Positions 38,037 through 55,798 of a stretch of 64,000 nucleotides of DNA are shown here, piece by piece (the stretch's first letter is position 1; the number at the start of each line of letters is the position of its first letter). Source of the DNA: a virus. The notes beneath the pieces are model-generated. The model was not told the DNA's origin. It saw only the letters and a program-made list of their open reading frames with translations, and did no database searches. The stretch is taken from positions 1-64,000 of IMG/VR virus record IMGVR_UViG_3300032579_000010. One strand, given 5' to 3'. The translations under genes were made by a program, and so were the position numbers.

Positions 38037-38819
38037 TTATGCCTCTACATCCTCTGGTTTGTTCCTGCCAACGGCTATTTGATGTTCAGGAAACGGGTTT
38101 CCCCAAGCGTCCAAACCACGGAAATAAAGGCGACCTGCTTCGTGGGGTTTTGTTTTGTCTTCGTTGCCACGAAGCCGTGAGAACTCACGAACCGTAGCCG
38201 CCTCGGCGGTGATTTGTTCCTCGCTAAACATTTCGTCGGCATAGACCATTGAGAACTCGTCAGCGAAGTGACGTGGAACCATTACAAAAGCACCGATTGG
38301 CTCACCTTTGCGGAAGTGGATGTCAAGGTTCGGCTCCGTGATTTTGAGGTTGAACGTGAAGTCTCGCCTTAGGTTGTCAGTTTCCACCACCCCCGTCATA
38401 TGGGTAATGCCACGCTTAAAGAAGTTGGGTGGGTTGATAGTCATAATGTTCACGCCAATGGGGGTGCGAATGTGCCAGTTGTTTTGTACCGTAAAAATGC
38501 CAGAACCAAAGTGTCCCTCGTAGTTCTGAATGGGGTTTTCCACCTTTTGCCAGTCAACGGTTACGTCCGTATTTGCGTCGCCCCCGTTCCAACGAACAGT
38601 CAAGTCAGTTTCAGCACGGACGACAAACCCGTACTGGTTGCCAATGGCTAGCGGTAGGCAGTAATAGAAGTGCGAGTTAAACCAATCACGACGACGCTGA
38701 CCAGCCAACGGCTCTAACAACTTGCTGATGCGTTCTTTGCTCTTGCCGTATTCGGGCAAGACGACCATTGTTTTCTCTGGGATTTCAGCACCAGACTCGT
38801 TGATGGCAGTCTCGTTCAT
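38037..38819 (-). CDS. DUF6065-like protein (paralog A)
   Basis: YYCLPLAIGNQYGF, PPNFF, GVVETD, KGEPI. Confidence 0.65.
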   Translation of the reverse strand: MNETAINESGAEIPEKTMVVLPEYGKSKERISKLLEPLAGQRRRDWFNSHFYYCLPLAIGNQYGFVVRAETDLTVRWNGGDANTDVTVDWQKVENPIQNYEGHFGSGIFTVQNNWHIRTPIGVNIMTINPPNFFKRGITHMTGVVETDNLRRDFTFNLKITEPNLDIHFRKGEPIGAFVMVPRHFADEFSMVYADEMFSEEQITAEAATVREFSRLRGNEDKTKPHEAGRLYFRGLDAWGNPFPEHQIAVGRNKPEDVEA

Positions 38820-39574
38820 TTTTTGGGCTTTCTTATGAATACTTGGTGGTCGCTAAAAGGGTTTTCAAATGCGTCAACCCCACGTCGGTAATGGTTTTCA
38901 GGACTACCGGGGATAGAGCGCAGTCTGTCGTGTTCGTCTCCCGATGACAACTCGGTGGCGATTTCATCAGGCGTGTAAAACTCGTCCGCAAAGTGTAGCG
39001 AGAAACTATCTACAAAGTACCTAGGAATCAGTATGAACGAGGCTATCGGCTCACCCTTTTTGAAGTGAATAAGCAAATCTGGCTCGGTGATTTTTAGATT
39101 AAAAATGAAGTTCCGACGCAGATTGTCCGTCTCTATTACCCCAGTCATGTGGTGAACGCCACGCTTGAACCAGTTGGGTGGCTGTACGGTCATAAGGTTC
39201 ACGCCGAGTGGTGTCCGTAGCAACCAGCGATGCTCGATAGTTACTGTAGCCCAGCCAAAATGTGATTTGTATTCTTGTACGTCATTCCACTGTTGGTCAT
39301 GTAACACCTCTACGTCGTCTGGCGTGTTTCCACCATTCCATAGTACGGAGAAGTCGTTTTCCGCCCTTATGACAAAGCCGTATTGGTTGCCAATAAGCAT
39401 TGGAAGGCAACGAAACATAGAGCCTGACATCCAATCACGTTTCTTTTCACCAACCAAAGGCTGTAGAAGTTCCAAACAACGTTGCTTCTCCTCTTCGCCC
39501 GTCAAGTAGGGAATAAGCAACAAAGTATTTTCGGGAATCTCTTTGCCCTCTGAGTTGATAATGGGCTGGCTCAT
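38816..39574 (-). CDS. DUF6065-like protein (paralog B)
   Basis: FRCLPMLIGNQYGF, PPNWF, GVIETD; aligns by eye with paralog A over its whole length. Confidence 0.65.
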   Translation of the reverse strand: MSQPIINSEGKEIPENTLLLIPYLTGEEEKQRCLELLQPLVGEKKRDWMSGSMFRCLPMLIGNQYGFVIRAENDFSVLWNGGNTPDDVEVLHDQQWNDVQEYKSHFGWATVTIEHRWLLRTPLGVNLMTVQPPNWFKRGVHHMTGVIETDNLRRNFIFNLKITEPDLLIHFKKGEPIASFILIPRYFVDSFSLHFADEFYTPDEIATELSSGDEHDRLRSIPGSPENHYRRGVDAFENPFSDHQVFIRKPKK

Positions 39575-40167
39575 TTGGAAAGGGAATCCGCCATTGTTGG
39601 GTCAAAGCACCAGAAACCAGCGCAGGTATAGCGAGTGGCGTTTTTCACCTGACGAACCCCGTGCAACCACTCGGTTGTGCCGGGGAAACTCACCATCATT
39701 CCCGGCTCGCCAATGACTTCCATATCTTGATTGGGGAAGTAAGTTCCACCACCCTCGTAATCGTCGTTCAAATAAATGATTGAGGCGTACCTGCGCCAAG
39801 GGTAGGGGTTTGGTGAACCGTCAGGTTCCTCTGCGTCAGCGTGGGGTGGCTGTTCCGTACCTTCGGGCCAACGAACCAGTTGAAAGGTGTCGGTGTACAA
39901 GGGTAGTGTGAGTTGCCGTGTTACCGTAATGTGGTCACGGATTCGTTTGTGAATGTCAACAAGGGTTTCGTAGACCTTTATTGAACGTTGGTCATTTTTT
40001 ATTTCACCAAAACGACCAATCGTGTTGGCGAACATCGCCCTGCCGTTCCAAAAAGGCTGGTCTGGTGAAGACCAATCCCACTGGTCGTGAGAGTACTCGC
40101 TCTTAGCGTGGTCGAGAAGGATTTTCACCTCGTCCTCGCTAATGAAGTTTGGGTTGACAGAAATCAT
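39571..40167 (-). CDS. Fe(II)/2OG oxygenase, prolyl-4-hydroxylase-like
   Basis: HAD...IIYLNDDYEGG...HGV....RY. Confidence 0.85.
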   Translation of the reverse strand: MISVNPNFISEDEVKILLDHAKSEYSHDQWDWSSPDQPFWNGRAMFANTIGRFGEIKNDQRSIKVYETLVDIHKRIRDHITVTRQLTLPLYTDTFQLVRWPEGTEQPPHADAEEPDGSPNPYPWRRYASIIYLNDDYEGGGTYFPNQDMEVIGEPGMMVSFPGTTEWLHGVRQVKNATRYTCAGFWCFDPTMADSLSK

Positions 40168-40913
40168 TTATTTCCCCTTACTAGGCGGTAAAACTTTTTT
40201 GAATAACTGTTTTTGCGGTAAGTGTTCTTTTGGTTTCGCCACTCTTCGTCGTATCCTTGAGCGTTGGAGTTCATTTCACTATACCCCTCACGAGTAGCCA
40301 GCAAAAGACCGGGGCGATACTCAAGGGAGTAATCCTCTCGCTTGAACGGGATTATTTGTACGAATGGTGTTCCAGCAGGAATAACGCCCTCAAAGTCATT
40401 GCGCAAGTAAAACGCAATCTTGCCCGTTGGCATTTTGTAGTACCCGTCCATTACGGCAGACAGGGTGATAAACGGCACGTCAAACCTGTTGAGGGGCTGT
40501 GTGAACAAGCAACTGTAGCCTTCGGGGATTTCCAGCGAAAGCCTGTTATCCCAAGAGAACGATACGGGGCTGTAACCGTGGGGGGCTGGCATCATTCCTA
40601 CGTCGTTGGCTTGACGCTCACCCATTACCTCAGAGGCGGAACTCATCCGCAACACTCCGTTTTCTTTGGTGACTATGTATTCCTCAGGGGTGAGAAGCAA
40701 ATACCCGATAGTAAGTGCCTCAATAAAGGGTAGGCAGTGTTTGACCGAAGGCATTTCACCACCGTCGACGCTTTTGAAAACAAGGGGGATTTTCTTGTAC
40801 CAGTCAGGAACAAGTTGTGAGGTTGATTCGATTATTGGGTTGTCGCCGCAATGGTCAAGGTCGTAATAAAAAGTGACCTTTTCACCGCTACCAGTACTTG
40901 TCGAAGTTTCCAT
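40164..40913 (-). CDS. DUF6065-related CLP-motif protein
   Basis: PDWYK, KHCLPFIEALTIGY, PLNR, GTPFVQIIPFKRE. Confidence 0.55.
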   Translation of the reverse strand: METSTSTGSGEKVTFYYDLDHCGDNPIIESTSQLVPDWYKKIPLVFKSVDGGEMPSVKHCLPFIEALTIGYLLLTPEEYIVTKENGVLRMSSASEVMGERQANDVGMMPAPHGYSPVSFSWDNRLSLEIPEGYSCLFTQPLNRFDVPFITLSAVMDGYYKMPTGKIAFYLRNDFEGVIPAGTPFVQIIPFKREDYSLEYRPGLLLATREGYSEMNSNAQGYDEEWRNQKNTYRKNSYSKKFYRLVRGNK

Positions 40914-41616
40914 TTAAGTGTGCATCACCAAGATATTTGGGCGTTACGTTACGGCACCAGAAGGCTGTATTAACGTAACGAACTCCATTGGCAATAGGGT
41001 TAATGCCGTGCGGATTCTCCACCGTTCCCTCAAAAATGACTAATAAACCCGGCTTGGGCTTAATCATAAAGTTATTGTGTCGAGGGAAGTAGATTTCACC
41101 ACCATCAAAGTCGCCGCTGAGATACAACATACTGGTGTAGTGCTTTTGAGTGTTGTAAATGCGGTAGATTTCCTCGGCGGCAGGTGGGAACCACATTTCG
41201 TTGTAATCAGCAGGCAGGTCAGTTTCACGGTTGAAGTCAGGATTTATGTAGTCAATGTGTGGTTGTTGCCAGAATGGTTCGTGCCACCGCACGATTTCCC
41301 ACGACTCAAGGAAGATGCTGTCGTGAGTCCTCTCAAAGAAGTTTTCCACCTCAATGCGTGAGCGTTCCTTAACGTCCCAAGCGAGAGAAAGCAGTTCGGG
41401 GCAAAGGCGAAGCGAGGCAATCTGGTGAAGGTCAATAACCCTGTCGTTCCACTGCGTGTTGAACTGAGCACGGTGCTCTTCCTTTATGTCGCTATCTACG
41501 CCAATGTTGGCGATTGACCATAAATCCGATTTCTTGGACTCTTCAATCAGGAACTCACAGTTTTCAGTACTAATGAAGTTCTCAATAATCCTTACTTTGG
41601 GCGATTCGTAGTCCAT
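40888..41616 (-). CDS. Fe(II)/2OG oxygenase, prolyl-4-hydroxylase-like
   Basis: HID...LYLSGDFDGGE...HGI....RY. Confidence 0.85.
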   Translation of the reverse strand: MDYESPKVRIIENFISTENCEFLIEESKKSDLWSIANIGVDSDIKEEHRAQFNTQWNDRVIDLHQIASLRLCPELLSLAWDVKERSRIEVENFFERTHDSIFLESWEIVRWHEPFWQQPHIDYINPDFNRETDLPADYNEMWFPPAAEEIYRIYNTQKHYTSMLYLSGDFDGGEIYFPRHNNFMIKPKPGLLVIFEGTVENPHGINPIANGVRYVNTAFWCRNVTPKYLGDAHLNGNFDKYW

Positions 41617-42179
41617 TGTTCCTCCGTAACTTGACCACGGATTACATCAATGTAATCTGGTCCTTTTGTGTAAAACCAGTGGTCAGGCTCTACAAAATGA
41701 AAAAACACCATGCCAACAATCTGGTTCTCTGGGTCGGGTATTGCCTCACGCCAGTGCTCCTGTTCATTCCCGTAGTAGGCAAGGGCTTGGTTGGGCATAA
41801 GTGTGTAGGACTTGCCTTCGACAAACAAGTCCCAAGGACGGTTTTGATACAGGCACATATCTAGCGTGTAGGTGCAAGCGTTATCGTCTTTGTGGTGGAA
41901 AAGGTTGGGTATTGCGTTGCCATTTTTTTGGTATTGGGCAAAAAAAGCGTAACTGGGCAGTAGGGAGTGACTATTGAATACCCTGCGAGCCTTCCAAACC
42001 GAGCGAGTAAAAGCCTCACGCAATAGTGGGTTTCTCGTGTCGCTTAGGCAGTACCGACCAAATCCCTCGTCGTAAGAGTTCTCCTGAACAATGACGGATT
42101 TCAGTGCCTCAGAAATGTACTCGTAGTAGTGAGGCTCAAATAGATTATCAACGATTACGGGTTCTCTCATTTTACCCAC
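41592..42179 (-). CDS. Fe(II)/2OG oxygenase-like protein
   Basis: HKD..CTYT...HWRE...FFHF. Confidence 0.7.
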   Translation of the reverse strand: MGKMREPVIVDNLFEPHYYEYISEALKSVIVQENSYDEGFGRYCLSDTRNPLLREAFTRSVWKARRVFNSHSLLPSYAFFAQYQKNGNAIPNLFHHKDDNACTYTLDMCLYQNRPWDLFVEGKSYTLMPNQALAYYGNEQEHWREAIPDPENQIVGMVFFHFVEPDHWFYTKGPDYIDVIRGQVTEEQWTTNRPK

Positions 42180-42775
42180 TGCACTATTGCGTATCGGGTG
42201 CCACGCATAACGGGCATCACCTCGTGTGTGTACATAAAGTTTGATGGAAAAATAATCAACTGCTTGGCTTGTGGCTTAATGCTTAATCCAAAGTTGTCAA
42301 ACAGGATTTCACCACCCTCGTAATCATCATTGACGTAGTAGCAAAGCGAGACACGACGAAGGAGCGCACTACCGTCGTCGCAGTGGTCACGGAAACGCTG
42401 TCCAAACCCATATCGAAGGATTGAAAAGTCCTCGTACACATTCTCTAGGTCAACATTGTATTTTTGCTTGTACTGGTCGTAGTAAGGGGCAAAGGCTTCG
42501 TAAAGTTTTTGAGACACAAACACCTTCAACCAATCAGGTGATTCTTTCAGAGGCATTGGCTCGTCTTTGATTGGCTGAGGCGCTGTATAAACAAAGCAGT
42601 TTCGTGATTTCGTATTAACAAAACCTTCACCGTTTTCACCAATGACCATAGACGGTTCCCAAAGGCTCACAAGACCCTGAGATTCCTGCTCAATCAAGTC
42701 AATAATGCTATTGCTTGTTGGAAAGACGTTGTATGCGGTGACAATGCCGGGGGCGATTTCTGTAAACTGTTCCAC
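42167..42775 (-). CDS. Fe(II)/2OG oxygenase, prolyl-4-hydroxylase-like
   Basis: HCD...YVNDDYEGGE...FPSNFMYTHEV....RY. Confidence 0.85.
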   Translation of the reverse strand: MEQFTEIAPGIVTAYNVFPTSNSIIDLIEQESQGLVSLWEPSMVIGENGEGFVNTKSRNCFVYTAPQPIKDEPMPLKESPDWLKVFVSQKLYEAFAPYYDQYKQKYNVDLENVYEDFSILRYGFGQRFRDHCDDGSALLRRVSLCYYVNDDYEGGEILFDNFGLSIKPQAKQLIIFPSNFMYTHEVMPVMRGTRYAIVQWVK

Positions 42776-42803
42776 ATCACCACACTACAGCATAAACCAC
42801 CCT

Positions 42804-43349
42804 CTACGCCGAGGGCATAAAGTCACCAAAAACGACGGCAGCCCTTTGTCTTGTAAGACTTTTCACCTCGTGGTCTACGCCACTGGGCATAAAGAGGATG
42901 TCGCCGGGTTCTAATACAAACTCGTAGTTTTCACCATGACCTTTTCGAGTGTCCCATAGTTGCCACGAGGAACGACCAACGCAGTTCAAGTGGAACATAT
43001 TGCTATGGTCGGCGTGTCTAGTTACGCCCGTTAAGGCATCGCCTTCATTGGACTCGGAAATAAACATATACATAGAAACACCAAAGGTTTCGTCACGGAT
43101 ACTGTCTAGTTCGTTCCAAACAAACCTCAGTCCGTTTAGTTGGTCGAGGTGTTTCTCAAACTCTATACCGTCGAAATACACGGCACAAAATGTTCCTTCG
43201 GGGTAAGCAACTGCCCACGGTGGTGGGTTATCCCGAAGAGGAACAAGTTGCTTCCAATCAGGCATTTCAGTAACTAGACCACGAATAACAACGGGTTTGG
43301 ATAGGTCTAGTGATGAAATGTGCTCGGAAAAGGTAGCCATAGAACCCAC
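42804..43349 (-). CDS. JmjC/cupin-type hydroxylase
   Basis: HAD.......G...W...LEPGDILFMPSGVDHEV. Confidence 0.8.
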   Translation of the reverse strand: MGSMATFSEHISSLDLSKPVVIRGLVTEMPDWKQLVPLRDNPPPWAVAYPEGTFCAVYFDGIEFEKHLDQLNGLRFVWNELDSIRDETFGVSMYMFISESNEGDALTGVTRHADHSNMFHLNCVGRSSWQLWDTRKGHGENYEFVLEPGDILFMPSGVDHEVKSLTRQRAAVVFGDFMPSA

Positions 43350-43355
43350 CCCCGA

Positions 43356-44453
43356 TTATTGCGGAGTGGGTTCTATGTACTGATAGCCCGATGCGACCTT
43401 TATGTTGTGCGTCAAGATTCCAGCACCAAAAAACAGGTCATTTGGACCAACGGTCAGTTTTGACACCAAAACGTTTGCCGAAACAATCTCGACAGAGGTA
43501 ATCGGTATCGCCTGAAGTTCCTCGTTCATCAAGAGGTCGCCAATCTGCATTGACCACGCCCTCATGAACTGCCAAACGCCAGCACGATTCACGAACACAA
43601 AGTGGTCACCCGTCAAACTGATTTGGTCGTTGAAGGTGTAGTAGCCAGAAGCGCCAATGTCGGTGTTTGCCTGAACAATAGTGGTTTCGTAGGTTGTTTG
43701 ACCTATTTGCGAATCCGGTACCGACCAAACCGACGCTGGGTACCAAAGGTTAACTATTTCACCATTTGGATACGTCGGAATAACCGCTGTCTTTAGCACG
43801 TCGCCAACTTGAACGTCCTCAATGTTTTTGAGCGTACCGTCAGCCATGAGAATCGGAGTTCCGTGGATAAAGCATCCACCCCTAGGTGGCGGCACTGGCG
43901 GCGGAACTGGTGGCGGAACGTATGGCGGAACGTATGGCGGCTTTGGTGGCGGAACGTAGGGCGGAACGTAGGGCGCAATGTAGGGTGGCGTATAAGGCGG
44001 CGGAACGGGCGGCGGAACGTAGGGCGGCGGAACGGGTGGCGGAACGTAGGGCGGCGTATAAGGTGGCGGAACGTAGGGCGGCGTATAAGGCGGCGGAACG
44101 TAGTTAGGGACATCTGAACCGCTATACGCAGAATACCCACTGCTTCCAGCATTATTCACGGCCGCTACGGCGTATTCGTATGTGTAGTTAGCAGAAAAAC
44201 CGTAACTAACTAGCGCAGGACTTGAGGTGAAACCTGCCTGATACGAAACAACGGTTCCCGTATTGACGCAGTAAATCGCAACAGTAAATGTCTTTGCTTT
44301 GGAGCCGTTTGGGTTTGGCGTGAAGTAAACATTCACCTGAGTTCCACTTACAACGGACGGTGAGCCAATAGTGGGCGTATTAGGAGGCTTGATTAGAAAG
44401 TCGCCAGAGTCATCTGCCGACATACTCCCTCGTGCGCCAATAATAGGACTCAT
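43356..44453 (-). CDS. FN3 + extensin-like Pro/Tyr repeat + Hint (BIL/Hedgehog-like) domain protein
   Basis: FN3 (PTIG...YEYAVAAVNNAG), (YVPPP)n, GG|CFIHGT, TGDH, ILTHN. Confidence 0.85.
   Translation of the reverse strand: MSPIIGARGSMSADDSGDFLIKPPNTPTIGSPSVVSGTQVNVYFTPNPNGSKAKTFTVAIYCVNTGTVVSYQAGFTSSPALVSYGFSANYTYEYAVAAVNNAGSSGYSAYSGSDVPNYVPPPYTPPYVPPPYTPPYVPPPVPPPYVPPPVPPPYTPPYIAPYVPPYVPPPKPPYVPPYVPPPVPPPVPPPRGGCFIHGTPILMADGTLKNIEDVQVGDVLKTAVIPTYPNGEIVNLWYPASVWSVPDSQIGQTTYETTIVQANTDIGASGYYTFNDQISLTGDHFVFVNRAGVWQFMRAWSMQIGDLLMNEELQAIPITSVEIVSANVLVSKLTVGPNDLFFGAGILTHNIKVASGYQYIEPTPQ
43884..44108 (-). repeat. Coding repeat of PPPYV/PPYT/PPPV units (12-15 bp)
   Basis: GGCGGAACGTAG-type units on the + strand. 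Confidence 0.9.
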
Positions 44454-44467
44454 AACCCTACTTTACA

Positions 44468-47400
44468 CTAAAACTGGGTAAGTGAGGCAAAGATAACATA
44501 CGTTGCGTTTGCTGTCTTGGTAATAGTGAAGTTGTAAGCGTCATACCCGTTGGCGTATCCGTTGGTTGGGTAACCCAGACCACCAGCCCAGTAAATCGAG
44601 GACTGCGAACCGTCAATGTAGACCGTATTACAGTAGTACGAAGCACCAGAACCACCCTGAAGCACCATTACGGCAACCGTCACACTTTGACCAACTGAAA
44701 GAAGGCTGTTGAGTGTTGAGCCACCCGAAGTTCCTGTGAAGTTGAACTGGAAGGTGTTGGTTGCCTGTGAGGTGAACAACACAAGCGAGCCTTGACCCGT
44801 CAAGTAGATGGTTTGTACACCGTTCGGGCTGTTGCTGTTGAGGTACGTCGTTTCGATTGGCGAGGTGAATACCGTGTTAATGGTCGTCGCTGGTGTACCT
44901 TGGTAGCCCTGATTTCCCTGATAACCTTGATTTCCTTGGTATCCTTGCGGTCCTTGAGCACCAGTCGAGCCAGTGATACCTTGGTATCCCTGAACACCCT
45001 GCGCACCAGTTGAACCCTGAGCACCAGTAAATCCTTGGAATCCTTGGTTTCCTTGAGTACCTTGATAGCCCTGCGAACCAGTCGCACCTTGGTAGCCCTG
45101 AGGTCCGGTGGCACCAGTGTTGCCCTGATACCCCTGATACCCCTGCGCACCCTTTTGACCGTCAACATTTACCGTCCAAGTAGAACTTGTGCCTGAGCCA
45201 GTTACCGTGGCGACATTGACCACCAGAGCGCCTGTAGAGGCGTTGTATGAGGCGACCAGACCGACCATTGTTCCAACGGTAGAGACGAGCGATACGCCCT
45301 GTCCTGCCGTGTAAGCCAGACCAGTTCCTACGGTGAGGGTTTGAGAACCAGTACCAATGGTGAGCGAGGTTGTACTTGTCGTGGCGAATGAAGCGCCTTG
45401 GTACCCTTGGTATCCCTGATAGCCCTGAGTACCCTGCGGACCAGTTTGTCCTTGAGCACCCTGAGGACCGTAGCCACCAGTAGAACCTGTTGAACCTTGA
45501 TAACCCTGAGTACCTTGCGTTCCTTGGTAGCCCTGAACACCTTGGCTACCCGTTGCGCCTTGCGCACCCGTGTACCCTTGTAATCCTTGAGCGCCCTGAA
45601 CACCTTGATAACCGATAGCGCCCTGAACACCCTGTGCTCCTTGGTTACCAGTCGCACCAGTAGAACCCTGATAGCCCTGCGCTCCTTGAGCACCTTGCAG
45701 ACCAGTTACACCTTGAACACCCTGCGTACCCTGAGCACCAGTGCTACCTTGGGCACCAGTTAGACCCTGCGTACCTTGCGGACCATAGCCACCAGTAGAA
45801 CCAGTGTTTCCTTGGAAGCCTTGGTTACCCTGACTTCCTTGAAAGCCTTGGAAACCCTGCGCACCAGTCGTACCCTGAGCACCTGTGTATCCCTGATAAC
45901 CCTGTGGTCCTTGTGCTCCCTGAGCACCTGTAGCGCCCGTGGCACCTTGAACACCTTGGTTACCAGTTGCACCCGTGTAGCCTTGCGTACCTTGCGTACC
46001 TTGGGCACCAGTAGCACCCGTCAGACCTTGCGAGCCTTGTGGTCCAATGCCACCAGTGGCACCAACGTTACCTTGGTAGCCTTGATAACCTTGTGCGCCC
46101 TGATACCCTTGAACACCTTGAGCGCCAGTTGAACCTTGCGCACCAGTCGTTCCTTGGTATCCCTGAGCACCCTGAGAACCAGTGGCTCCCGTGGAACCTT
46201 GAACACCCTGAGTACCCTGTGCCCCAGTAAAGCCTTGGTAGCCCTGTGCACCTTGCGTTCCTGTAGCACCAGTAGCACCTTGTACACCTTGAGTACCTTG
46301 CGCACCAGTAAAGCCCTGATAACCCTGACTTCCCTGCGCACCAGTAGACCCTTGGTATCCTTGGTAACCCTGATAACCACGAGTACCTTGGTTACCCTGC
46401 GAACCCTGCGGACCTGTGAAGCCTCGGAATCCTTGGTAACCCTGAACTCCCTGAATACCAGAGAGCGAGAAGTACCAGTTGCTGATTGTGCCAGTGGCAC
46501 CTTCGCCTGAGTAGCCAGTCAGCGAGATGGTGAACTCGAAGCCCGAACCACCAGCATTGACAACGCTGTAGATAAAGCCTGTGTAGAAAACCGCTACACC
46601 GTCAGTGTCGTTTCCAGCAAGCGTTACTGCTTGACCCGTGTAGTACGAGTCGGTAGTTGCGTTGTAGAACACTGCCGTTGAGCCAACATCTGCGCCAGTT
46701 GCGTCAAGGGCAGAAACAGTGGTGATTGCGTAGGCTGGGAAGTCTGCGCCCTGAACACCCTGAACACCTTGGTGTCCTTGCGTACCCTGACTACCCTGAA
46801 CACCTTGGTATCCCTGAAGTCCTTGGTAACCCTGAGCACCTTGGCTACCTGTGTAGCCCTGATACCCTTGAGCACCCTGAACTCCTTGGTAACCAATGGC
46901 TCCTTGGTAGCCTTGAGCACCCTGCGAACCTGTCGCACCTGTGTATCCTTGGCTACCTTGTGCACCAGTCGAGCCTTGGTAACCCTGCGTACCTTGTGCG
47001 CCTTGGTAACCCTGAGCACCGCTGGCACCCTGATTACCTTGCGGACCTTGGACGGTACCAACGCTAATCCACTGGCTTTCAGCAGTAGACCAAACATAAA
47101 CGTCTGGACCAACAATGTACGCCGTGCCCGGTACGTCTGGACCAGTGGGCCAAGCCGCTTCCAGTGCTGATTCGGACGAGTAGGTTCCTTGAATGTTGAA
47201 CGCCGTACCAGCGTTACCTTGGTAGCCTTGCGTACCTTGGTAACCCTGCGGACCGAGAATGTCAGCAACTTCCTGCCACTCGTTTAGTTCAGCGTTCCAC
47301 GCATAGACCTGACCAACAATGACATAGACCTGACCAGTAATGGCTGGACCACTTGGGTGGGCAGAAGTGAGGTCTTCGATAGTGTCGTAGGAACCAGCGA

Positions 47401-50400
47401 TAGTTACGGAGTAACCAGAATCACCTTGGTAACCTTGGGCACCCTGCGGACCAAACTCACGCCACGGCATATCGTCAGTGCCAAGAGCGTTGGTTGACTT
47501 GAATGACGTGACCCAGACGGTTCCACCATTTGTCGTTCCCTTTAGAACCTGAACAATAGAGGCGGCAATCTTGCCTGCCGTGTCAATGTCGTTGTCTCGA
47601 ACTGCCGAGAAACCAGATGAAGAGCCGTCACTAGTGACGACATAGACACCGTTCTGTGAAGCCGTTGTCTGGTCTTTCAGCAAGAAGCGGTCATCCACAC
47701 TCAGGACATAGCCGTCGAGAGACAAGGTGCCTGAGATGTTGAGGTTGATAACGTCAGCCGTTACTGGGTAGTCATTTGACGTGTTGTTGTTGGCGACGTA
47801 GGTAACATCAACGTTTCCTGTAGAAGCAAGTTCTACAGGCTCGTGGACGTTGTACTGAACGTACTGTGGAGGCCCGTTCAGACCCAAGTTGCCGTAAGAC
47901 ATGAGCAACTGCCCAGCCTCACCGTAGCCACCTGCGAAGGTGGGAATGTAGGCAAAGACAATGGGGTCAGAACCGAGCGTTGTGCCAGTCTTGAGTTGGC
48001 ACTGCCACGATGTACCACCGTTTTCAGAACCAGAACTGACCTGAATAATCGAAGCGGCTAGTTTGTCAACGGTATCTACGTCGTTGTCACGAACCGCCTC
48101 AAATGCGCTTTCACCATCGGTTCCGTCAACCAGAACAACATACACACCGTTTTGTGCTGAGTTGGTCTGGTCTTTTAGCAAGAACCTGTCGTTAGAAGCA
48201 AGTTGGTATCCGTCAATGGTGACGGTTCCAACGCCCGTTGCGGTGAAAGTGTCAGCGGCAACGGGCCAGTCGTTGGTCAGGTTTGCGCCGACTGCGTATG
48301 TCCAATCCCAGTTTTCACCAGTCGTAGCAACTACAACAGGCTCGTGGATTTGGTATTGGATGTACTGTGGCGGACCATTGTGACCAATGTTTCCGTAACT
48401 CATCAAGAGTTGTCCAGCGTTACCGTATGAACCAGTGTTTGCGTTCGCAATGAAGGTGATTGGGTCAGTGCCCATTACCGCCAGAGCCGAGGTCGCACAC
48501 TGCCAAGTGGTACCACCGTTTTCAGTACCTTCGGAGACTTGGATAAGTGAAGCCGCAATCTTTTCGATGCGGTCAACGTCGTTGTCACGAATGAGGTGAA
48601 TCTTTCCGTTGTCGTCGTTGAGAGACGATACGACATACACACCATTTTCGGCGGCGTTGGTCTGGTCTTTCACCAAAATACGGTCATCAACCTGAACGGT
48701 GTAGCCGTCAATCCTCCACGTTCCTGAAACAGGAATGTCGAGGGTGTCTACCCAGAGGGGGTGGTCATTGGTGTTATCGCCAGCAGAAGTGTCAGCGTCG
48801 CCAACTGTGTAGGTTCCTGCGAGGTTTTCACCAGTAGTCGCTACACGAACAGGCTCGTGGACACCGTAAGTAATGAACTCCGGCCCGCCGTTGGCAATGT
48901 CGCCATACGACATGAGAAGTTGTCCTGCGTTTCCAGCACTTGACCAAGTAGCAGAGCCGTCTGTGGCACCGAACATAACGCCACCAGAGGTGATGCCGTA
49001 GGCAATCGGTCCTTGTGTACCTTGCTGACCAAAGTACCCCTGATAACCCTGTGTTCCCTGATAACCCTGCGGACCTTGATAGCCCTGATTACCTTGGAAT
49101 CCTTGGAATCCTTGGAAACCTTGTGTGCCTTGAGCACCCGTATCACCTTGGAAGCCCTGATTACCTTGAGCACCAGTTTCTCCTTGGTTACCCTGATAGC
49201 CCTGAAGCCCTTGGTGACCCTGAACACCTTGAGCGCCTGTAGCGCCTTGGTATCCTTGGTTACCCTGAAAGCCTTGACTTCCTTGAGCACCAGTGGCACC
49301 TTGAACGCCTTGTGCGCCCGTAGAGCCTTGGAAGCCTTGATTGCCTTGGAATCCTTGAGAACCCTGAGCGCCAGTCGTGCCTTGGTAGCCTTGGTAGCCT
49401 TGGTTACCTTGGTAACCCTGCGGTCCGGTGAGGTTGCCCGTGCCGTACCACGTTTGCGTATTTGCGCCATACACCCAAGTCGAACCGTCAGTTACCTTGA
49501 GGTACTGGTCGCCGTCCTTAATGCCGGGAATGGTTGAGAGTGGGTTTTCAGTACCCTCGAACCAACCAGTTCCTCGGTTTCCTTGGTATCCCTGATTTCC
49601 TTGGTACCCTTGATTTCCTTGGAAACCTTGATTACCTTGGAAGCCCTGATAACCCTGCGGACCAAAGGCTTGCCAAATAACGGGGTCGGTACCCAGCGTG
49701 TCGGTTGCCTTGAACGTTGTCGTCCAAACAGAACCACCGTAGGTGTCACCCTGCTTGACCTGAACGATAGAAGCCGCCAACTTGTCGGCTGTGTCAATGT
49801 CGTTGTCACGGACTGCGCTAAAGGCGTTTTCAGTACCGTCAGAGGTGCAGACATACACACCGTTCTGGTACGCATCGTCTTGGTGAAGTAGCAAGAAACG
49901 GTCACCCACTTGGACGGTGTATCCGTCGAGTGTTACCGTTCCTGAGCGGTTGCTGGTGATTGTGTCAGCGGCTACTGGGTAGTCGTTCGTGGTATCTCCA
50001 CCGCTGGTGTAGGTAACGTCCAGCGATGTGCCGTCTGACGAGACAGTAACTGGCTCGTGGATGTTGAGCGAGATGTACTGAGGCGAGCCATTGGTACCGA
50101 TTTCACCATAACTCATCAAGAACTGACCAGCAGTACCGTATCCGCCAGCCACCGTTGGGATGTAGGCAAAGACGATTGGTTCGGTTCCTAGGGTTGCGGT
50201 TGAGGAAGTCTGACATTGCCACGACGTTCCACCATTCTGGGTACCTTGAAGCACCTGAATGATAGAGGCTGACAACTTTCCAATGGTATCTACGTCGTTG
50301 TCACGAACGGCTTGGAATACTTCGGTTGAGCCGTCGCTTAGGACTACATACACACCATTTTGGTTTGCGTCCTCTTCGTCCTTGACGAGGAATCGGTCAT

Positions 50401-53400
50401 TGACCTGAAGCGTGTAACCGTCAATGGTGTAAGTACCAAGGTCGGTGGCAGTCAGTGTGTCGGCAGCGTGGGGCCAGTCATTCGTGAGGTTGGAACCGAT
50501 TGCGTATTCCCAGTCGTTGATGCTGTCATCGTCGCCTGTGGTTGCCACAACAACGGGTTCGTGGATTTGGTACTGAATGAACTCAGGCGGACCGTTGTAT
50601 CCAATGTTGCCGTAAGACATCAGCAACTGACCTGCTTCACCGTAACCACCCGTGTTGGCGTTAGCGATAAAGGTAATGTGGTCAGTACCTAGAACTGCAA
50701 GAGACGAAGCGGCACACTGCCAAGTCGTTCCACCATTTTGGATACCGTCAGAAATCTGAACAAGTGAAGCAGCGATTTTCTCAATGCGGTCTGCGTCGTT
50801 GTCACGGCAAAGAATCCAGTTATTGCTTTCGTCGCCTACTTGAATAACAACCCAGATACCGTTTTCAGCAGGATTGGTCTGGTCTTTTAGAAGGAGTCGG
50901 TTGTCAAGGGCGACTGTCCAGCCGTCCATCACCCACGGGCCGGTGTAAGGGAACTCAAGAGTATCAACCCAAAGTGGATAGTCATTGGTGTTGTTTCCTG
51001 CCGAAGTGTCGGCATCGCCAATCGTGTATGTACCGGCAATGTTTTCACCAGTGGTAGCGGCGATTACTGGCTCGTGAACACCGTAAGTAACCCATTCTGG
51101 TCCGCCATTAGTAATGTCGCCGTAAGACATAAGCAGTTGACCAGCGGTGCCTGAGTTGGCAGTCCAAGTAGCAGTTCCGTCGTCAGCACCAAAGAGGACT
51201 GCGCCAGAGGTGATACCAAAGGCGATTGGTCCTTGGTTACCCTGCGTACCGAGTTGTCCTTGGTAGCCCTGATTTCCTTGGTACCCTTGTGCTCCTTGGA
51301 AACCTTGGTACCCCTGCGTTCCTTGCGGACCTTCGAGGCGACCAACATTTTGCCAGACGTTACCCTCATCGTTCCAGACATAGAGGTCACCAGCGACAAT
51401 GTAGGAGTCGCCTTCCTCGTCTGGACCGCTTGGATATGCCGACGTAAGGGCTTCTAAGGTGTCGTATGAGCCGTCAATCATTAAAGGCGTACCAGTGGCA
51501 CCCTGATAACCTTGATAGCCCTGCGGACCGAACTGGCTGAACGGGATTGGGTCGGTACCTAGGGTGTCGGTAGCCTTTGAGCCAGATACCCATACGGTTC
51601 CACCAAGAGTGGCACCTTGTACGACCTGAACGATTGAAGCCGCCAACTTAAAGGCGGTGTCAATGTCATTATCACGGCAAGCAGAGAAGGCGTTAGATGT
51701 ACCGTCTGACAAAACCACATAAACGCCGTTTTCGTAAGCGTTGTTCTGGTGTTTCAGTAGGAAGCGGTCACTGACTTGCAGTGTGTATCCGTCAAGTACA
51801 AGAGTTCCTGACGAGTTGAGTGCGATTACGTCAGCGTTAGTCGGAGCATCGTTCGTGGTGTTTCCACCAACCGTGTAAGTAACGTCAACGTTTTCTGTTG
51901 AGGCAACAACGACGGGTTCGTGAACGTTCAGCGAAATGTACTGAGGTGCACCATTGGTGCCAAGGTTTCCGTAAGACATTAGGAACTGTCCTGCTGTTCC
52001 ATAGCCACCGGCAACTGTAGGAATGTAAGCGAAAATAATGTCGTCGCTACCAAGAGTCATCGTTGAGGTGGCTTGACACTGCCAAGAGGTTCCACCATTA
52101 GTCGTACCCTGAACAACTTGGATAATCGAAGCCGCTAACTTACCAATCGTGTCAATGTCATTGTCTCGGCAGGATTGGAACGGAGTGCTTGAGCCGTCGT
52201 TTAGTACGACATAAACACCGTTTTGGTTGGCATTTTCTTCGTCCTTGACCAAGAAGCGGTCACCAACCTGAAGTTGGTATCCGTCAATAATGTATGTACC
52301 AACCGACACACCAGTCAAGGTGTCTGCGCCTACGGGCCAGTCGTTCGTGGTGTTTCCACCAACTTCGTAGTTCCACTCAATAATGTCGTCATCGCCCGTA
52401 GTAGCAACAACTACTGGCTCGTGAATCTGGTAACTAATGAACTGCGGAGCACCGTTGTAGCCAAGGTTTCCGTAGGACATAAGAAGTTGTCCAGCCTCAC
52501 CGTAGTTAGCGGTGTTGGCGTTTGCGTAGAAAACAATCGGGTGAGTACCCATTGTTGCGAGGGAAGAAGTACCACACTGCCACGTCGTTCCGCCGTTTTC
52601 ATTACCTTCCGATACCTGAATAAGCGACGCACCCAACTTTTGCATGGTGTCAACGTCATTGTCACGTATAAGAAGCCAGTTGTTCTCTGAATCACCAGCG
52701 GTACCGACTACATACACACCGTTTGACGCTGGGTTAGTCTGGTCTTTGAGCAGAAGACGGTCATCTTCACCAACCGTCCAGCCGTCCATTACCCAAGCGC
52801 CCGTGTAGGGGAACTCGATGGTGTCTACCCACAACGGGTAGTCGTTGGTGTTGTCGCCCGATTCCGTTTCGGCGTTTCCGACGGTGTAAGTACCTTCATC
52901 TCCAATGCTTTCACCAGTCGTAGCGGCTCGCACGGGTTCGTGGATTGCGTAGTTGACAAACTCCGGTCCGCCGTTTGCGCCATCACCATAAGACATAAGC
53001 AGGGAGCCAGCCGAGCCAGAACCTGAAGTCCAAGTGGCACTACCGTCTTGCGCACCAAAAAGAACACCAGCAGGAGCAATACCAAAAGCAATCGGCCCTT
53101 GCGAACCCTGAGTACCAAAGTATCCTTGGAAACCTTGCGGACCTTGCGGACCTTGTTCGCCCATAGGAACGAACGTCGCCCAGTAAGTGTTAAGACCAGT
53201 TACAGGGTCAGTGGTTGGTGATTCTGATGCAGGGTTGCCGTTGTAGTTAGCGAGGTACAAGCCACCTTCGTAAAGAACTACGTCAGTCGGGTTGTATGAA
53301 GTGCCAGAAACCCAAGCACCCTTGTATTGGAAGCCTGAACCTTGGTAACCTTGATTTCCCTGAAAGCCTTGGAATCCTTGGTGACCTTGCGCACCTTGAT

Positions 53401-55798
53401 ACCCTTGATTTCCTTGAAGTCCGAAGCGTGTCCAAATCTGGTCGGTTTCACCAAGTGAGTCGGTGGATTTGAAGTTAGTAGTCCAAACGGTTCCACCATA
53501 CGCAGAGCCTTGGAATACTTGAACGATTGAGGCGGCAATCTTGCCTGAAGTGTCTACGTCATTGTCACGAACACCAGAAAAAGCGGTTACTGAACCGTCG
53601 CTAGTGACAACGTAAACACCGTTATAGGCGGCGTTGTCTTGACCAGCGAGAAGGATTCGGTCATCCAACTGAACGCCGTAACCGTCAATAGTGACAGTTC
53701 CTTCAGCGTTGAGAGTAATGGTGTCGGCGGCTACTGGGTAGTCGTTCGTCGTGTCGCCACCGATTGTGTACGTTACGTCAATGTTTTCAGTAGATACAAC
53801 CTGTACGGGTTCGTGAACGTTTAGTTGGATGTACTGCGGAGAACCATTGGAACCAATGTCACCGTAGGACATAAGGAACTGACCGGCTTCACCATAACCA
53901 CCAGCGACGGTGGGGATGTAGGCGAAAATGATTGGGTCAGAACCAAGGTTGGAGGTAGAACTAACCTGACACTGCCAAGAGGTACCGCCGTTAGTTGCAC
54001 CCTGATAGACCTGAACAATAGACGAGGCGAGTTTTCTGATTGTGTCTACGTCATTGTCTCGACAAGCCTGAAATGCGCTGTCTGTTCCGTCGTTGATGAC
54101 GACATACACACCGTTCTGCGCAGGGTCAGTTTGGTCTTTCAGCAGGAAACGGTCATCCATTTGTAGTTGGTAACCGTCAATAACAACGTTGCCAGTAGTG
54201 CTGGCGGTCATTTGGTCTACACCACGGGGCCAGTCATTTGTCGTGTTCGCACCGACGGCAAAAACCCAGTCCCAGTTTTCACCACTCGTGGCGACTTGGA
54301 CGGGTTCGTGAACGTTGTACTGGACGAACTCAGGCGGACCGTTGTAGCCGATGTTTCCATACGACATCAGCAGTTGACCTGCCTCGCCATACCCGCCAGT
54401 GTTAGCGTTGGCAACGAAAACGATTGGGTCGGTGCCAAGTTGAGAGAGTGCTGAAGCGTTGCACTGCCAAGTAGTTCCGCCGTTCTGAACACCGTCAGAG
54501 ATTTGGAACAATGAAGCCGCCAACTTCTGAATCGTGTTTGTGTCATTGTCACGGACGAGGTACCAGTCGTTTCCGGCACTACCAACGGTTGCTACGAGGT
54601 AGACACCGTTCTGCGCCTTTACTGTCTGGTCTTTTACAAGGATGCGGTCATTGGCGTGAACCGTCCAACCGTCTACTACCCAGTCGCCCGTGTAGGCGAA
54701 AGTAAGGGTGTCTGAAGCCACGCCAACGTCATTGGTCGTGTCTGCGCCGACGGTGTAAGTTCCTTCAATGTTTTCACCAGTCGTGGCGGCAGTAATGAAC
54801 TCGTGAATACCGAATGTCGTCCACTCTGGTCCGCCGTTGGCGATTTCTCCGTAGGACATAAGGATTTGTCCTGAGTTTCCAGCATTGGTCGTCCAAGTTG
54901 CCGAACCATCTTCGGCACCAAAAAGAACGCCACCCGAAGTAATACCAAAAGCAACGGGGCCTTGGTTACCTTGCGTACCAAGATTTCCCTGAAATCCCTG
55001 ATGACCTTGTGCACCTTGGGAACCAGTAGAGCCTTGAGCGCCCTGAAATCCTTGGTTTCCTTGGTAGCCCTGAAGTCCAGCGGTTCCCTTTTCACCTTGA
55101 GGTCCGGTAAAGCCCTGCGGACCTTGCGAGCCACTTGCGCCCTGCGGACCTTCAGCACCTTGATAGCCACTTGCGCCGTCCATACCGTTGGCACCTTGGT
55201 ATCCCTGCATACCCATAGCGCCTTGAGCGCCTTGTGGTCCGGCAGAACCCTGCGTACCAGTTAAACCTTGCGCACCCTGAGGGGCAAAAAGTGTCCACGA
55301 GTCTAAACTAACGTCAGGCTGTTGGTCAGTGTTTCCAGAAAGGGCAATGTAAGTGTTGCCACTGTATTCAACGAGGTTGTATGTCTGGTAGTCAATCGAA
55401 GGGTTCCAACCACCAGCGTAGAAAACGCCTTGACCCGGCGCCCCCTGCGGACCGGCTGGACCAGTGGTGTACAAACCAAGGTCAGTGCTGGAAATGGTGC
55501 CAAAGATTTGGGTAATAAAGACCGAGACTGTCTTGCTTCCGTTGTCCTCGTAAGGTAAATCCGTGATTTCAGAAATCACACCAGTCATGTAGTCGGTGTT
55601 GTCTTGGTAAATCAAGACGTTCATGTTGACGGCAAAAGCATCAGCGTTTTGAGCGCCGAAGGGAATGGTCGCACCTTGAGTAACGGTGTCGCTTAGGTTG
55701 TGCCAAATAGGGGTGTAAGTACTAGCGCCTTGGGCACCTTGAGCACCGACAATCGCTGGTACCCATTCTGAGCCGTTCCAATACTTCAACTGTGCCAT
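44468..55798 (-). CDS. Giant 3776-aa collagen-like fibre protein with 12 globular tail-fibre-type repeats
   Basis: Gly-X-Gln runs; 4 modules of 3 repeats carrying [16 protein letters not shown]; fibre C-terminal domain ending TQF. Confidence 0.85.
45395..46459 (-). repeat. Uninterrupted Gly-X-Y run (~118 triplets)
   Basis: 9-bp periodic CC(C/T)TG pattern; translation GXQ/GXT. Confidence 0.9.

Follow-up and report, generated by a model that had tools for sequence, protein, structure and literature searches.

Hint domains splice proteins in inteins, transfer lipids in Hedgehog proteins and, in a small number of proteins of bacteria and ciliates, act in cleavage or conjugation. The window analysed here (the whole stretch of 64,000 nucleotides, positions 1 to 64,000 of the IMG/VR virus record IMGVR_UViG_3300032579_000010) comes from an uncultured phage of aquatic origin and encodes, in its structural region, a protein, P0001, in which such a domain follows a Pro-rich stalk and is itself followed by a short tail that begins with Ile. 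What could a Hint domain accomplish at the end of a viral stalk protein when its +1 residue is not a nucleophile, and which of the known Hint systems does it resemble?

Organization of the P0001 gene and protein

43356..44453, minus strand: whole gene P0001 (FN3 / Pro-rich stalk / Hint, 365 aa)
44385..44453, minus strand: N-terminal peptide MSPIIG..., aa 1–23
44115..44384, minus strand: FN3-like beta-sandwich, aa 24–113
43875..44108, minus strand: Pro/Tyr/Val linker, aa 116–190, and Arg-Gly-Gly, aa 191–193
43875–43883, minus strand: Arg-Gly-Gly, end of the N-extein, aa 191–193
43404..43874, minus strand: Hint (type-A-BIL-like), predicted autoprocessing domain, aa 194–350
43872..43874, minus strand: Cys194, Hint residue 1, predicted thioester nucleophile
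43722..43781, minus strand: family-specific loop IPTYPNGE...WYPASVWS, aa 225–244
43602..43613, minus strand: block B, Thr281-Gly-Asp-His284
43404..43409, minus strand: end of block G, His349-Asn350, predicted Asn cyclisation site
43401–43403, minus strand: Ile351 (+1)
43398–43400, minus strand: Lys352 (+2)
43359..43403, minus strand: 15-aa C-terminal tail, Ile351-Lys352-...-Gln365, then the stop codon

The P0001 gene starts 14 nt past the stop codon of a gene for a 3776-aa collagen-like fibre and ends 6 nt short of the next gene, and its place is between the tail genes and this giant fibre gene. That it might be fused to the collagen-like gene upstream, or separated from it by a frameshift, was considered and rejected, because the frames differ, P0001 has its own Met and its N-terminus is kept in relatives. 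The contexts of close homologues were taken from the metagenome scan. The gene order matched in the relatives L014, L015/16 and L017/18; the collagen-like fibre gene was 98% identical to that of L014, whereas the P0001 counterpart was only 60–65% identical. Homologues in Phage NCTB and Flavobacterium, the latter with a DUF5977-Hint gene, were also found to adjoin tail-fibre genes. Five 2OG oxygenases are encoded in the neighbourhood of P0001; pairing with a set of prolyl-hydroxylase-like enzymes is conserved, which suggests that the appendage is chemically tailored.

Inspection of the AF2 full-length model divided the protein into several parts. The N-terminal peptide (pLDDT <50), which reads MPIIG or MPLMG in relatives, may be a docking segment. 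It is followed by an FN3-like region of nine beta strands (pLDDT 70–84), which could be aligned with the PF00041-bearing homologues P0003, P0009, P0013 and P0014, and which showed 37% identity over 89 aa to the FN3-like repeat of another protein of the window (62310–63896). In BFVD it matched best with uncultured-phage proteins labelled 'Fibronectin type III'. The Pro-rich segment that the initial annotation had noted before RGG|Cys194 was borne out: the 75-aa linker contained 44 Pro, 12 Tyr and 12 Val, with low pLDDT and no secondary structure in the model, and YYAP, PPF or GGGG linkers were observed at the corresponding position of homologues. The tail was modelled with low confidence (pLDDT 35–44).

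Fold and nearest relatives of the Hint domain

At 43874–43404 the annotation had placed a Hint domain with Cys1, TxxH, a terminal His-Asn, no endonuclease and Ile at +1, and the sequence, coordinates and fold all agreed with this description. The domain has a length of 157 aa without an endonuclease insert, and its AF2 model had a mean pLDDT of 82.9 and a pTM of 0.80. By Foldseek, 59 PDB Hint/intein chains were retrieved at E ≤ 1e-3, the best being BIL2 from the BUBL1 (BIL-ubiquitin-like) locus of Tetrahymena thermophila (6Y75, E 3e-11) and the type-A bacterial intein-like (BIL) domain of Clostridium thermocellum (2LWY, E 3.5e-9). By VIA-align, Z values of 14–20 were obtained against at least 80 Hint chains: 20.4 for BIL2 (rmsd 1.6 Å over 139 residues, 26% identity), 18.2 for 2LWY and 17.1 for Hedgehog 1AT0 (rmsd 1.9 Å over 130 residues, 14% identity). 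These results demonstrated a genuine Hint domain, as opposed to a motif that matched by chance.

The model and the family profile gave the same order of matches, namely Tetrahymena BUBL BIL2, then the C. thermocellum type-A BIL, then mini-inteins. Against the PDB, the family profile matched BIL2 with E 3.4e-17 and 2LWY with E 9.2e-10, and the single sequence matched BIL2 with E 1e-4. Hedgehog was absent from the profile matches at E ≤ 1e-3. Since the Z values of 20.4 and 17.1 are insufficient by themselves to separate BIL from Hedgehog domains, the separation rests on the sequence profiles.

Searches of Pfam, NCBIfam and PHROGs with the single protein gave sub-threshold block-A matches and one weak PHROG match. 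The Pfam matches were below gathering scores and covered block A only; the Hedgehog Hint model PF01079 reached E 0.16 (11.9 bits, below the cutoff of 29.7). The sole PHROG matched was PHROG 38766, labelled 'virion structural protein', with the Hint part included, and PHROGs covered barely any of the Hint family. Among 54 family members, 46 matched Pfam Intein_splicing and 19 matched PF07591 (PT-HINT), while PF01079 was touched by only 6 at E ≤ 0.01. A Hog domain consists of Hint plus an SRR/ARR (PMC2362128), and no SRR/ARR was found after the Hint domain, where merely 15 aa follow in P0001 and 1–26 aa in most relatives. The term 'Hedgehog-like' was consequently abandoned: only the fold is held in common with Hedgehog.

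Conservation and cargo of the family

The Hint family comprised 374 clusters at E ≤ 1e-30, almost exclusively from uncultured aquatic phages, with 13 close homologues and at least 188 metagenomic relatives of P0001. Among 50,697 GenBank phage records, Phage NCTB was the only relative, and no family carrier was found among cultured phages. In a single-sequence pattern scan of IMG/VR most matches were to ordinary inteins and confined to block A, and the scan was set aside. Literature searches turned up no account of the family; those on Hint/intein-like domains in phage fibres gave only true inteins of terminase and RNR genes.

The catalytic residues were conserved to a high degree. Cys1 was present in 199 of 199 full-length family domains and was invariant also in alignments A1 and A2; the terminal Asn was likewise found in 199 of 199, and the penultimate His in 194. 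The block-B His was observed in 121 of 126 single-Hint family proteins, with Thr or Ser in most. The dN/dS of the Hint domain was ∼0.18–0.28, so that by the sequences compared it is under purifying selection.

The flanks were much more variable. Gly precedes Cys1 in 52 of 126 proteins, and the triplets before Cys1 in the closest homologues were TGG, GGG, FGG, NTS, NHS and WFG, with CW, CL or CI at the start of the domain. The GG|CF junction emphasized in the annotation is therefore real in P0001 but is not a family feature, and the same holds for RGG, which was considered as a ubiquitin-like recognition signal; it is confined to P0001, and the signal was rejected. At +1, K, I, A, V, R, L and F were observed; Ser occurred in 2 of 113 proteins and 12 of 199 domains, and neither Cys nor Thr was among the eight commonest residues. 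In most members the tail has 1–26 aa. Its sole conserved feature is a Lys at +1 or +2, found in ∼90% of members and present even when the tail has only 1–2 residues; a description of this family-wide Lys was not found in the literature. Beyond this Lys the tails are unrelated across the subfamily, so the idea that a bioactive 15-aa peptide is released was discarded. Within the domain, the loop at aa 225–244 holds 11 of the 31 columns that are invariant in the close subfamily; it contains many aromatic residues and an acidic residue (pLDDT <50 across model residues 42–53).

The N-terminal parts vary as well. FN3, PASTA, BACON, collagen, DUF5977 or unknown parts were observed, and low-complexity linkers join them to the Hint domain. 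Two ubiquitin-Hint proteins, P0015 and P0039, were also found with the phage query or profile. Because such diverse, display-type parts are set apart from the Hint domain by a linker, be it flexible or rigid, the domain appears to be a portable end module rather than a part of the folded cargo. Judged by its residues, the family represents a further Hint clade, recognisable by Cys1 and His-Asn followed by an x-Lys that stands at the C-terminus or close to it.

Predicted self-excision of the Hint domain

On balance, and with slightly better than even confidence, we favour the reading that the domain is a type-A-BIL-like self-excising C-terminal cap, active at both junctions, on a virion-module FN3/Pro-rich stalk protein. 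Canonical splicing, which the annotation had already excluded, is not possible, since Ile351 at +1 is non-nucleophilic and the class-1 reaction is thereby precluded. The conserved His-Asn implies that the C-terminal junction is active too, because an N-junction-only device of the Hedgehog type would not require it. We infer autoprocessing in the phage family from these residues, and the reactions, the sequence in which they occur and what becomes of the thioester are given here as predictions. The Hint domain would first catalyse an N-to-S acyl shift at Gly193|Cys194, giving a Gly thioester. Asn350 would then cyclise with the help of His349 and cut Asn350|Ile351, with net self-removal of the 157-aa domain from the stalk. 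The stalk end might be hydrolysed to a free Gly193 carboxylate; alternatively, it might be joined to the short Lys-bearing tail, as in the 'splicing without a side-chain nucleophile' of type-A BILs. Biologically, the domain would probably serve the maturation of a surface appendage or the control of its assembly.

Type-A BIL domains (Amitai 2003 and Dassa 2004, as summarised in PMC4031507 and PMC7765530) have the His-Asn and lack the +1 nucleophile; they yield mostly cleavage products, although aminolysis allows them to splice as well (PMC4031507, PMC7664689). P0001 shares with them the Hint fold, Cys1, block B TxxH, His-Asn, the missing +1 nucleophile and endonuclease, and the location in variable, non-conserved proteins rather than conserved enzymes. 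The assignment follows the definition in PMC4031507, with closeness to 2LWY (E 9.2e-10), the second-best structure and profile match, taken as a proxy for the motifs of Amitai et al. 2003. P0001 differs from type-A BILs in being phage-encoded and in the extreme C-terminal place of the domain, with a tail of 15 aa here and of 1–26 aa in most of the family; the virion-module proteins that carry the domain have Pro/Tyr or Gly linkers in front of it.

Other Hint systems were more distant in architecture. A class-1 intein would have Cys, Ser or Thr at +1 for trans-esterification and would interrupt a conserved host protein that splicing restores. Here the +1 residue is Ile351, the domain is terminal, the 15-residue C-extein is not conserved, and the N-exteins of the various family members are unrelated to one another. 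In the PT-HINT of polymorphic toxins a C-terminal toxin domain follows and is released by the Hint, whereas here only the 15-aa tail follows. A functional analogy can be drawn with the Peptidase S74-type chaperones of tailspikes and fibres, which are also self-removing C-terminal modules of appendages. Their fold is unrelated, however, and they act by Ser-Lys dyad proteolysis instead of the Cys thioester and Asn cyclisation predicted here. They also pack on the trimeric fibre, whereas in P0001 a long linker parts the cargo from the Hint domain; this linker disfavours a tailspike-like role as folding chaperone.

Several observations are not accounted for by self-removal. It is puzzling why phages should keep a catalytic domain of this size just to discard it, why the Lys at +1 or +2 is retained even in the shortest tails, and why the aromatic and acidic loop should be the most conserved part in the close subfamily.

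Possible alternative fates of the thioester and of the domain

As the annotation proposed, the protein might be a covalent ligation device, with an external nucleophile in place of water resolving the Gly193 thioester. The candidates are an amine lipid, a sugar and Lys residues of virion proteins, the collagen-like fibre encoded next to P0001 among them. The FN3-stalk would then be anchored by its C-terminus, by analogy with BUBL BIL2 conjugation or with sortase substrates behind a Pro-rich spacer, and the loop could serve as an acceptor-docking or activating site. We regard this as possible but rather unlikely. BIL2 (6Y75/6TMM), the best match by sequence, Foldseek and VIA-align, forms isopeptides with Lys and, without ATP, attaches its N-terminal flank to other proteins (PMC8616854), and thus provides a precedent for a Lys amine that resolves the thioester; the characterised non-intein Hint systems, Hedgehog and BUBL, give the thioester to a non-water nucleophile (PMC2362128, PMC8616854). 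The retrieval of the ubiquitin-Hint proteins P0015 and P0039 points in the same direction, and a display domain with a linker, in which a small amino acid directly precedes Cys1 (Gly in 52 of 126), would suit a tethered acyl donor. P0001 shares with BIL2 the His-Asn end and, as the only member of the phage family to do so, the RGG|C junction. Nevertheless, it is encoded by a phage and not a ciliate, its N-flank is FN3 with a polyproline stalk and not a ubiquitin-like domain, its C-flank is the 15-aa tail and not a second ubiquitin-like domain, and RGG is not conserved. The sequence identifies no acceptor and no adduct-recognition region follows the Hint domain. Pure N-terminal transfer needs neither the invariant His-Asn nor the +1/+2 Lys, and the type-A BILs tested to date yield mainly cleavage (PMC4031507). 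Moreover, an exposed thioester would be expected to be intercepted, as P0001 has no signal peptide and the cytoplasm is rich in thiols.

The conserved Lys may itself be a built-in acyl acceptor, an idea that we hold as doubtful. The epsilon-amine of Lys352 would attack the Gly193 thioester to give an isopeptide 'branched intermediate', which would be resolved by Asn350 cyclisation; in a variant, the amine would be that of a Lys of a virion protein, and display domains would be stapled to the particle. Such chemistry would be the same as in ubiquitin conjugation and in BUBL BIL2.

It is improbable that the Hint domain stays uncleaved in the virion, where it would form the far end of a whisker-like appendage and serve there in binding or as a latent reactive tip. 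The C-terminal domains of phage fibres are usually distal and receptor-facing, the 'virion structural protein' PHROG 38766 covers the Hint part and the surface loop is conserved, all of which would fit a retained tip. But Cys1, the block-B His and the His-Asn are invariant over hundreds of clusters, which argues for catalysis and not for binding, and a fibre normally varies most at its receptor-binding tip, whereas here the Hint domain is conserved and the N-terminal cargo is variable.

Esterification of the stalk end with a sterol or lipid, as in Hedgehog proteins, is very improbable. The Hedgehog Hint 1AT0 superposes well on the model, the place is C-terminal, a thioester is predicted at the Gly-Cys bond, and the GG|CF junction, in P0001 alone, matches the Hedgehog cleavage site exactly. 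Yet this junction is not conserved, no region for sterol or adduct recognition (SRR/ARR) is present, the relation in sequence is weak (PF01079 E 0.16; no profile match at E ≤ 1e-3; 14% identity to 1AT0 versus 26% to BIL2), and the intein-type His-Asn is unneeded by Hedgehog chemistry. A decaying or selfish mini-intein remnant, functionless for the phage, is scarcely credible: intein-like blocks A, B, F and G are present and mini-inteins are close structurally, but the domain does not lie within a conserved host protein, has neither homing endonuclease nor +1 nucleophile, is under purifying selection, and is the same end-module on hundreds of unrelated N-terminal parts.

Implications for aquatic phages

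This Hint clade is among the commonest end-modules of surface or fibre proteins of uncultured freshwater and marine phages. The chromosomes of Flavobacterium contain relatives of the family, which makes the fate of the thioester testable in culturable hosts. If the thioester is merely hydrolysed, phage appendages would have a maturation step of a new kind. Should it instead be passed to an amine, the result would be an ATP-free, ubiquitin-like ligation that builds virions, as well as a compact natural protein-ligation tag. And if the acceptor is the Lys of the tail, protein splicing would proceed via an isopeptide bond in hundreds of aquatic phage lineages.

Layout of the Hint protein and its gene neighbourhood

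The coordinates and residues of the Hint protein in the initial annotation were all found to match the printed sequence. The gene and its product were laid out as follows.

43356-44453, minus strand: Hint gene ORF, 365 aa
N-terminus: short peptide, MSPIIG...
aa 24-113: beta-sandwich
aa 116-190: linker with 44 Pro, 12 Tyr and 12 Val
Cys194: first residue of the 157-aa Hint domain, preceded by Arg-Gly-Gly
Thr281-Gly-Asp-His284: block B of the Hint domain
Thr-His-Asn350: end of the Hint domain
Ile351-Lys352 onwards: C-terminal tail, 15 aa

The source of the window is a 95-kb IMG/VR virus record, ∼74% complete, whose tail module is of siphovirus type (major tail protein, tape measure, tail protein). 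The Hint gene starts 14 nt past the stop codon of a 3776-aa collagen-like fibre gene, and at most 6 nt separate it from a series of further genes, five for 2OG/cupin-type oxygenases and three of DUF type. The order of giant collagen-like gene, FN3-linker-Hint gene and oxygenase cluster was common to the relatives L014, L015/16 and L017/18. In L019-L021, which are more distant, the Hint gene also has oxygenase or DUF neighbours behind it. Such genes come after the Hint gene in the window and in relatives just 43–65% identical. The oxygenase and DUF-type genes were located at 38037-43349 (minus strand) in the window, at 8515-14327 in L014, at 7334-9191 in L015, and in L019-L021. The Pro/Tyr-rich linker is the obvious candidate for the oxygenases' substrate.

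The collagen-like protein (window 44468-55798, minus strand) was 98% identical over 1599 aa to that of L014 (3-4799), whereas the adjoining Hint gene showed only 60–65% identity, which points to a fast-evolving or exchanged module (strong mosaicism). The dN/dS of the Hint domain was ∼0.18 (window versus L014) and 0.28 (L015 versus L017).

Elsewhere in the window, 62310-63896 (minus strand) encodes a 529-aa protein in which FN3-like repeats are combined with a poly-Pro run and a C-terminal part that is long and Gly-rich; the gene after it (61017-62273) is glycosyltransferase/methyltransferase-like. One FN3-like repeat shared 37% identity over 89 aa with the FN3 of the Hint protein. This is a second display-type protein with another kind of end.

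Fold and nearest relatives

The AlphaFold2 model of the Hint domain (14 aligned sequences) had a mean pLDDT of 82.9 and a pTM of 0.80, with low confidence only in an internal loop (model residues 42-53) and the tail. Foldseek against the PDB returned 59 chains at E ≤ 1e-3, every one a Hint or intein. The top match was BIL2, the bacterial intein-like (BIL) domain of the Tetrahymena BUBL1 locus (6Y75; E 3e-11, TM 0.71/0.81), followed by the C. thermocellum BIL domain (2LWY; 3.5e-9) and mini-inteins. VIA-align to BIL2 gave a Z of 20.4 and an rmsd of 1.6 Å over 139 residues at 26% identity; the Z values were 18.2 for 2LWY, ∼17.7 for DnaB mini-inteins and 17.1 for Hedgehog 1AT0 (14% identity). Because these values are close, the Hint branches could not be separated by fold alone.

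Sequence, unlike fold, does separate them. A profile of 54 family members matched BIL2 at E 3.4e-17 and 2LWY at 9.2e-10, with inteins next and no Hedgehog chain at E ≤ 1e-3. With the single Hint sequence, Pfam matched block A alone, below threshold, and the Hedgehog Hint model PF01079 gave E 0.16; among the 54 members, 46 matched Intein_splicing, 19 PT-HINT and 6 the Hedgehog Hint model. By definition, a Hog domain consists of a Hint and an SRR/ARR (PMC2362128); no SRR/ARR follows the Hint of the window protein. The Hint is genuine, as had been claimed, but its description as Hedgehog-like was not supported as a family feature.

The full-length model showed the N-terminal beta-sandwich (pLDDT 70-84), a linker without structure and the Hint. 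Its best viral matches, annotated only automatically, were 'Fibronectin type III', 'PASTA' and 'Hint domain containing' proteins of uncultured Caudovirales, and Phage NCTB proteins. No stretch is more conserved in the close subfamily than an aromatic/acidic loop at aa 225-244 (IPTYPNGE...WYPASVWS; window 43722-43781, minus strand), which holds 11 of the subfamily's 31 invariant columns yet has a pLDDT below 50. The loop may serve in docking or in activating a nucleophile.

Family size and conserved residues

A word-indexed search yielded 13 close homologues (43–65% identity). All share one layout: an N-terminal part that varies (FN3, PASTA), a linker rich in Pro, Tyr and Ala, a small residue and Cys, then the Hint, Thr-His-Asn and a tail of 2-8 aa. 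A metagenome scan confirmed 188 relatives from lakes and oceans, of which the best 80 were retained. Among 1.84 billion cluster representatives, searched exhaustively with a profile, 374 clusters matched at E ≤ 1e-30 and 4506 at E ≤ 1e-10.

The best 150 representatives contributed 199 full-length Hint domains, in which residues were counted. Cys1 and the terminal Asn were present in all 199, the penultimate His in 194 and the block-B His in 165 (121/126 among single-Hint proteins). The residue before Cys1 was Gly in ∼40%, and otherwise S, A, E, N, T, K or P. The ubiquitin-like RGG remarked on earlier is no family feature, being found before Cys1 in the window gene alone.

The +1 residue was K, I, A, V, R, L or F; Cys or Thr never occurred there in the 113 single-Hint proteins, and Ser occurred twice. 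With the non-nucleophilic Ile351 at +1, canonical splicing is not possible, in line with the initial annotation. Tails were mostly 1-26 aa. Of 108 proteins, 95 had Lys at +1 or +2; among 56 non-redundant metagenome loci, detected with a scan pattern that did not include the Lys, 45 had it at +2. One-residue tails were 'K' in 6/6 and two-residue tails 'xK' in 12/16. Past the Lys the tails were unrelated, so that release of a 15-aa peptide does not hold as a family feature.

In a marine subfamily (L058-L093, e.g. L072 7989-8498 and downstream), HN-x-K after the Hint leads into a conserved C-extein of 25-50 aa that is rich in Cys (6-8 residues); Asn cyclisation would free this extein as a small disulfide-rich peptide. 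Some proteins (P0018, P0025, P0030, P0159, P0037) consist of Hint domains in tandem, as many as 8 within 1285 aa, with connectors of just K, KG, KGG or RS and nearly no extein.

Proposed chemistry

With His-Asn, no +1 nucleophile, no endonuclease and variable host proteins, the domain by definition fits the type-A BIL pattern. Type-A BIL domains cleave at both ends, and inefficient splicing is possible if the amine set free on Asn cyclisation goes on to attack the N-terminal thioester (PMC4031507; PMC7664689; PMC7765530). On this pattern and chemistry, the type-A-BIL-like Hint is most likely a self-excising cap at the end of phage appendage proteins. An N-to-S acyl shift at Gly193|Cys194 and cyclisation of Asn350 would remove the Hint from the protein, and the stalk would then end in a free carboxylate or be ligated to the Lys-bearing tail. 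The invariant His-Asn argues that the C-terminal junction is active.

Ligation to an external acceptor, as put forward in the initial annotation, is judged unlikely. It is chemically credible because BIL2, the nearest solved relative, makes a Lys isopeptide and links the ubiquitin-like flank on its N-terminal side to other proteins in an ATP-independent way (PMC8616854), and because two Ubiquitin-Hint (BUBL-type) proteins, P0015 and P0039, were also retrieved by the phage Hint query or profile, which makes the phage family and protist BUBL BILs close relatives. These two have LRGG|C junctions and MQIF... after HN. However, no acceptor could be named, and type-A BILs tested to date chiefly cleave. 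Since it has no signal peptide, the Hint protein is presumably made in a thiol-rich cytoplasm, which would intercept an exposed thioester. The variant with the tail Lys as acceptor seems slightly less probable still. A Hedgehog-like cutter acting at the N-terminal junction only is disfavoured by the invariant His-Asn together with the missing SRR/ARR. The initial observation was confirmed, and its interpretation was partly supported.

Self-removal of the cap alone does not account for a Lys kept even as the sole C-extein residue, for the invariant columns of the aa 225-244 loop, or for the linker between cargo and Hint.

Distribution

Among 50,697 GenBank phage records, relatives were found only in the metagenome-derived Phage NCTB (LT598654.1), inside its tail-fibre region. 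There (L094 6496-8477), a 507-aa tail protein bears a C-terminal Hint whose 7-aa tail ends in KK. The CDS after it encodes a Hint standing alone, with an N-extein of just 7 residues and an HNKVD end, and another 'large intein domain protein' lies 1.4 kb downstream.

In bacterial genomes, the family occurred in several Flavobacterium chromosomes as DUF5977, a Gly run, the Hint and 'THNYK'. Those in L096, L097, L099 and L100 are ∼290-aa proteins whose Hint begins with Cys1, and the genes adjoin a DUF5977 paralogue, a DUF285 protein and a phage-tail-fibre-repeat protein. These Flavobacterium hosts can be cultured, which makes the family accessible to experiment.
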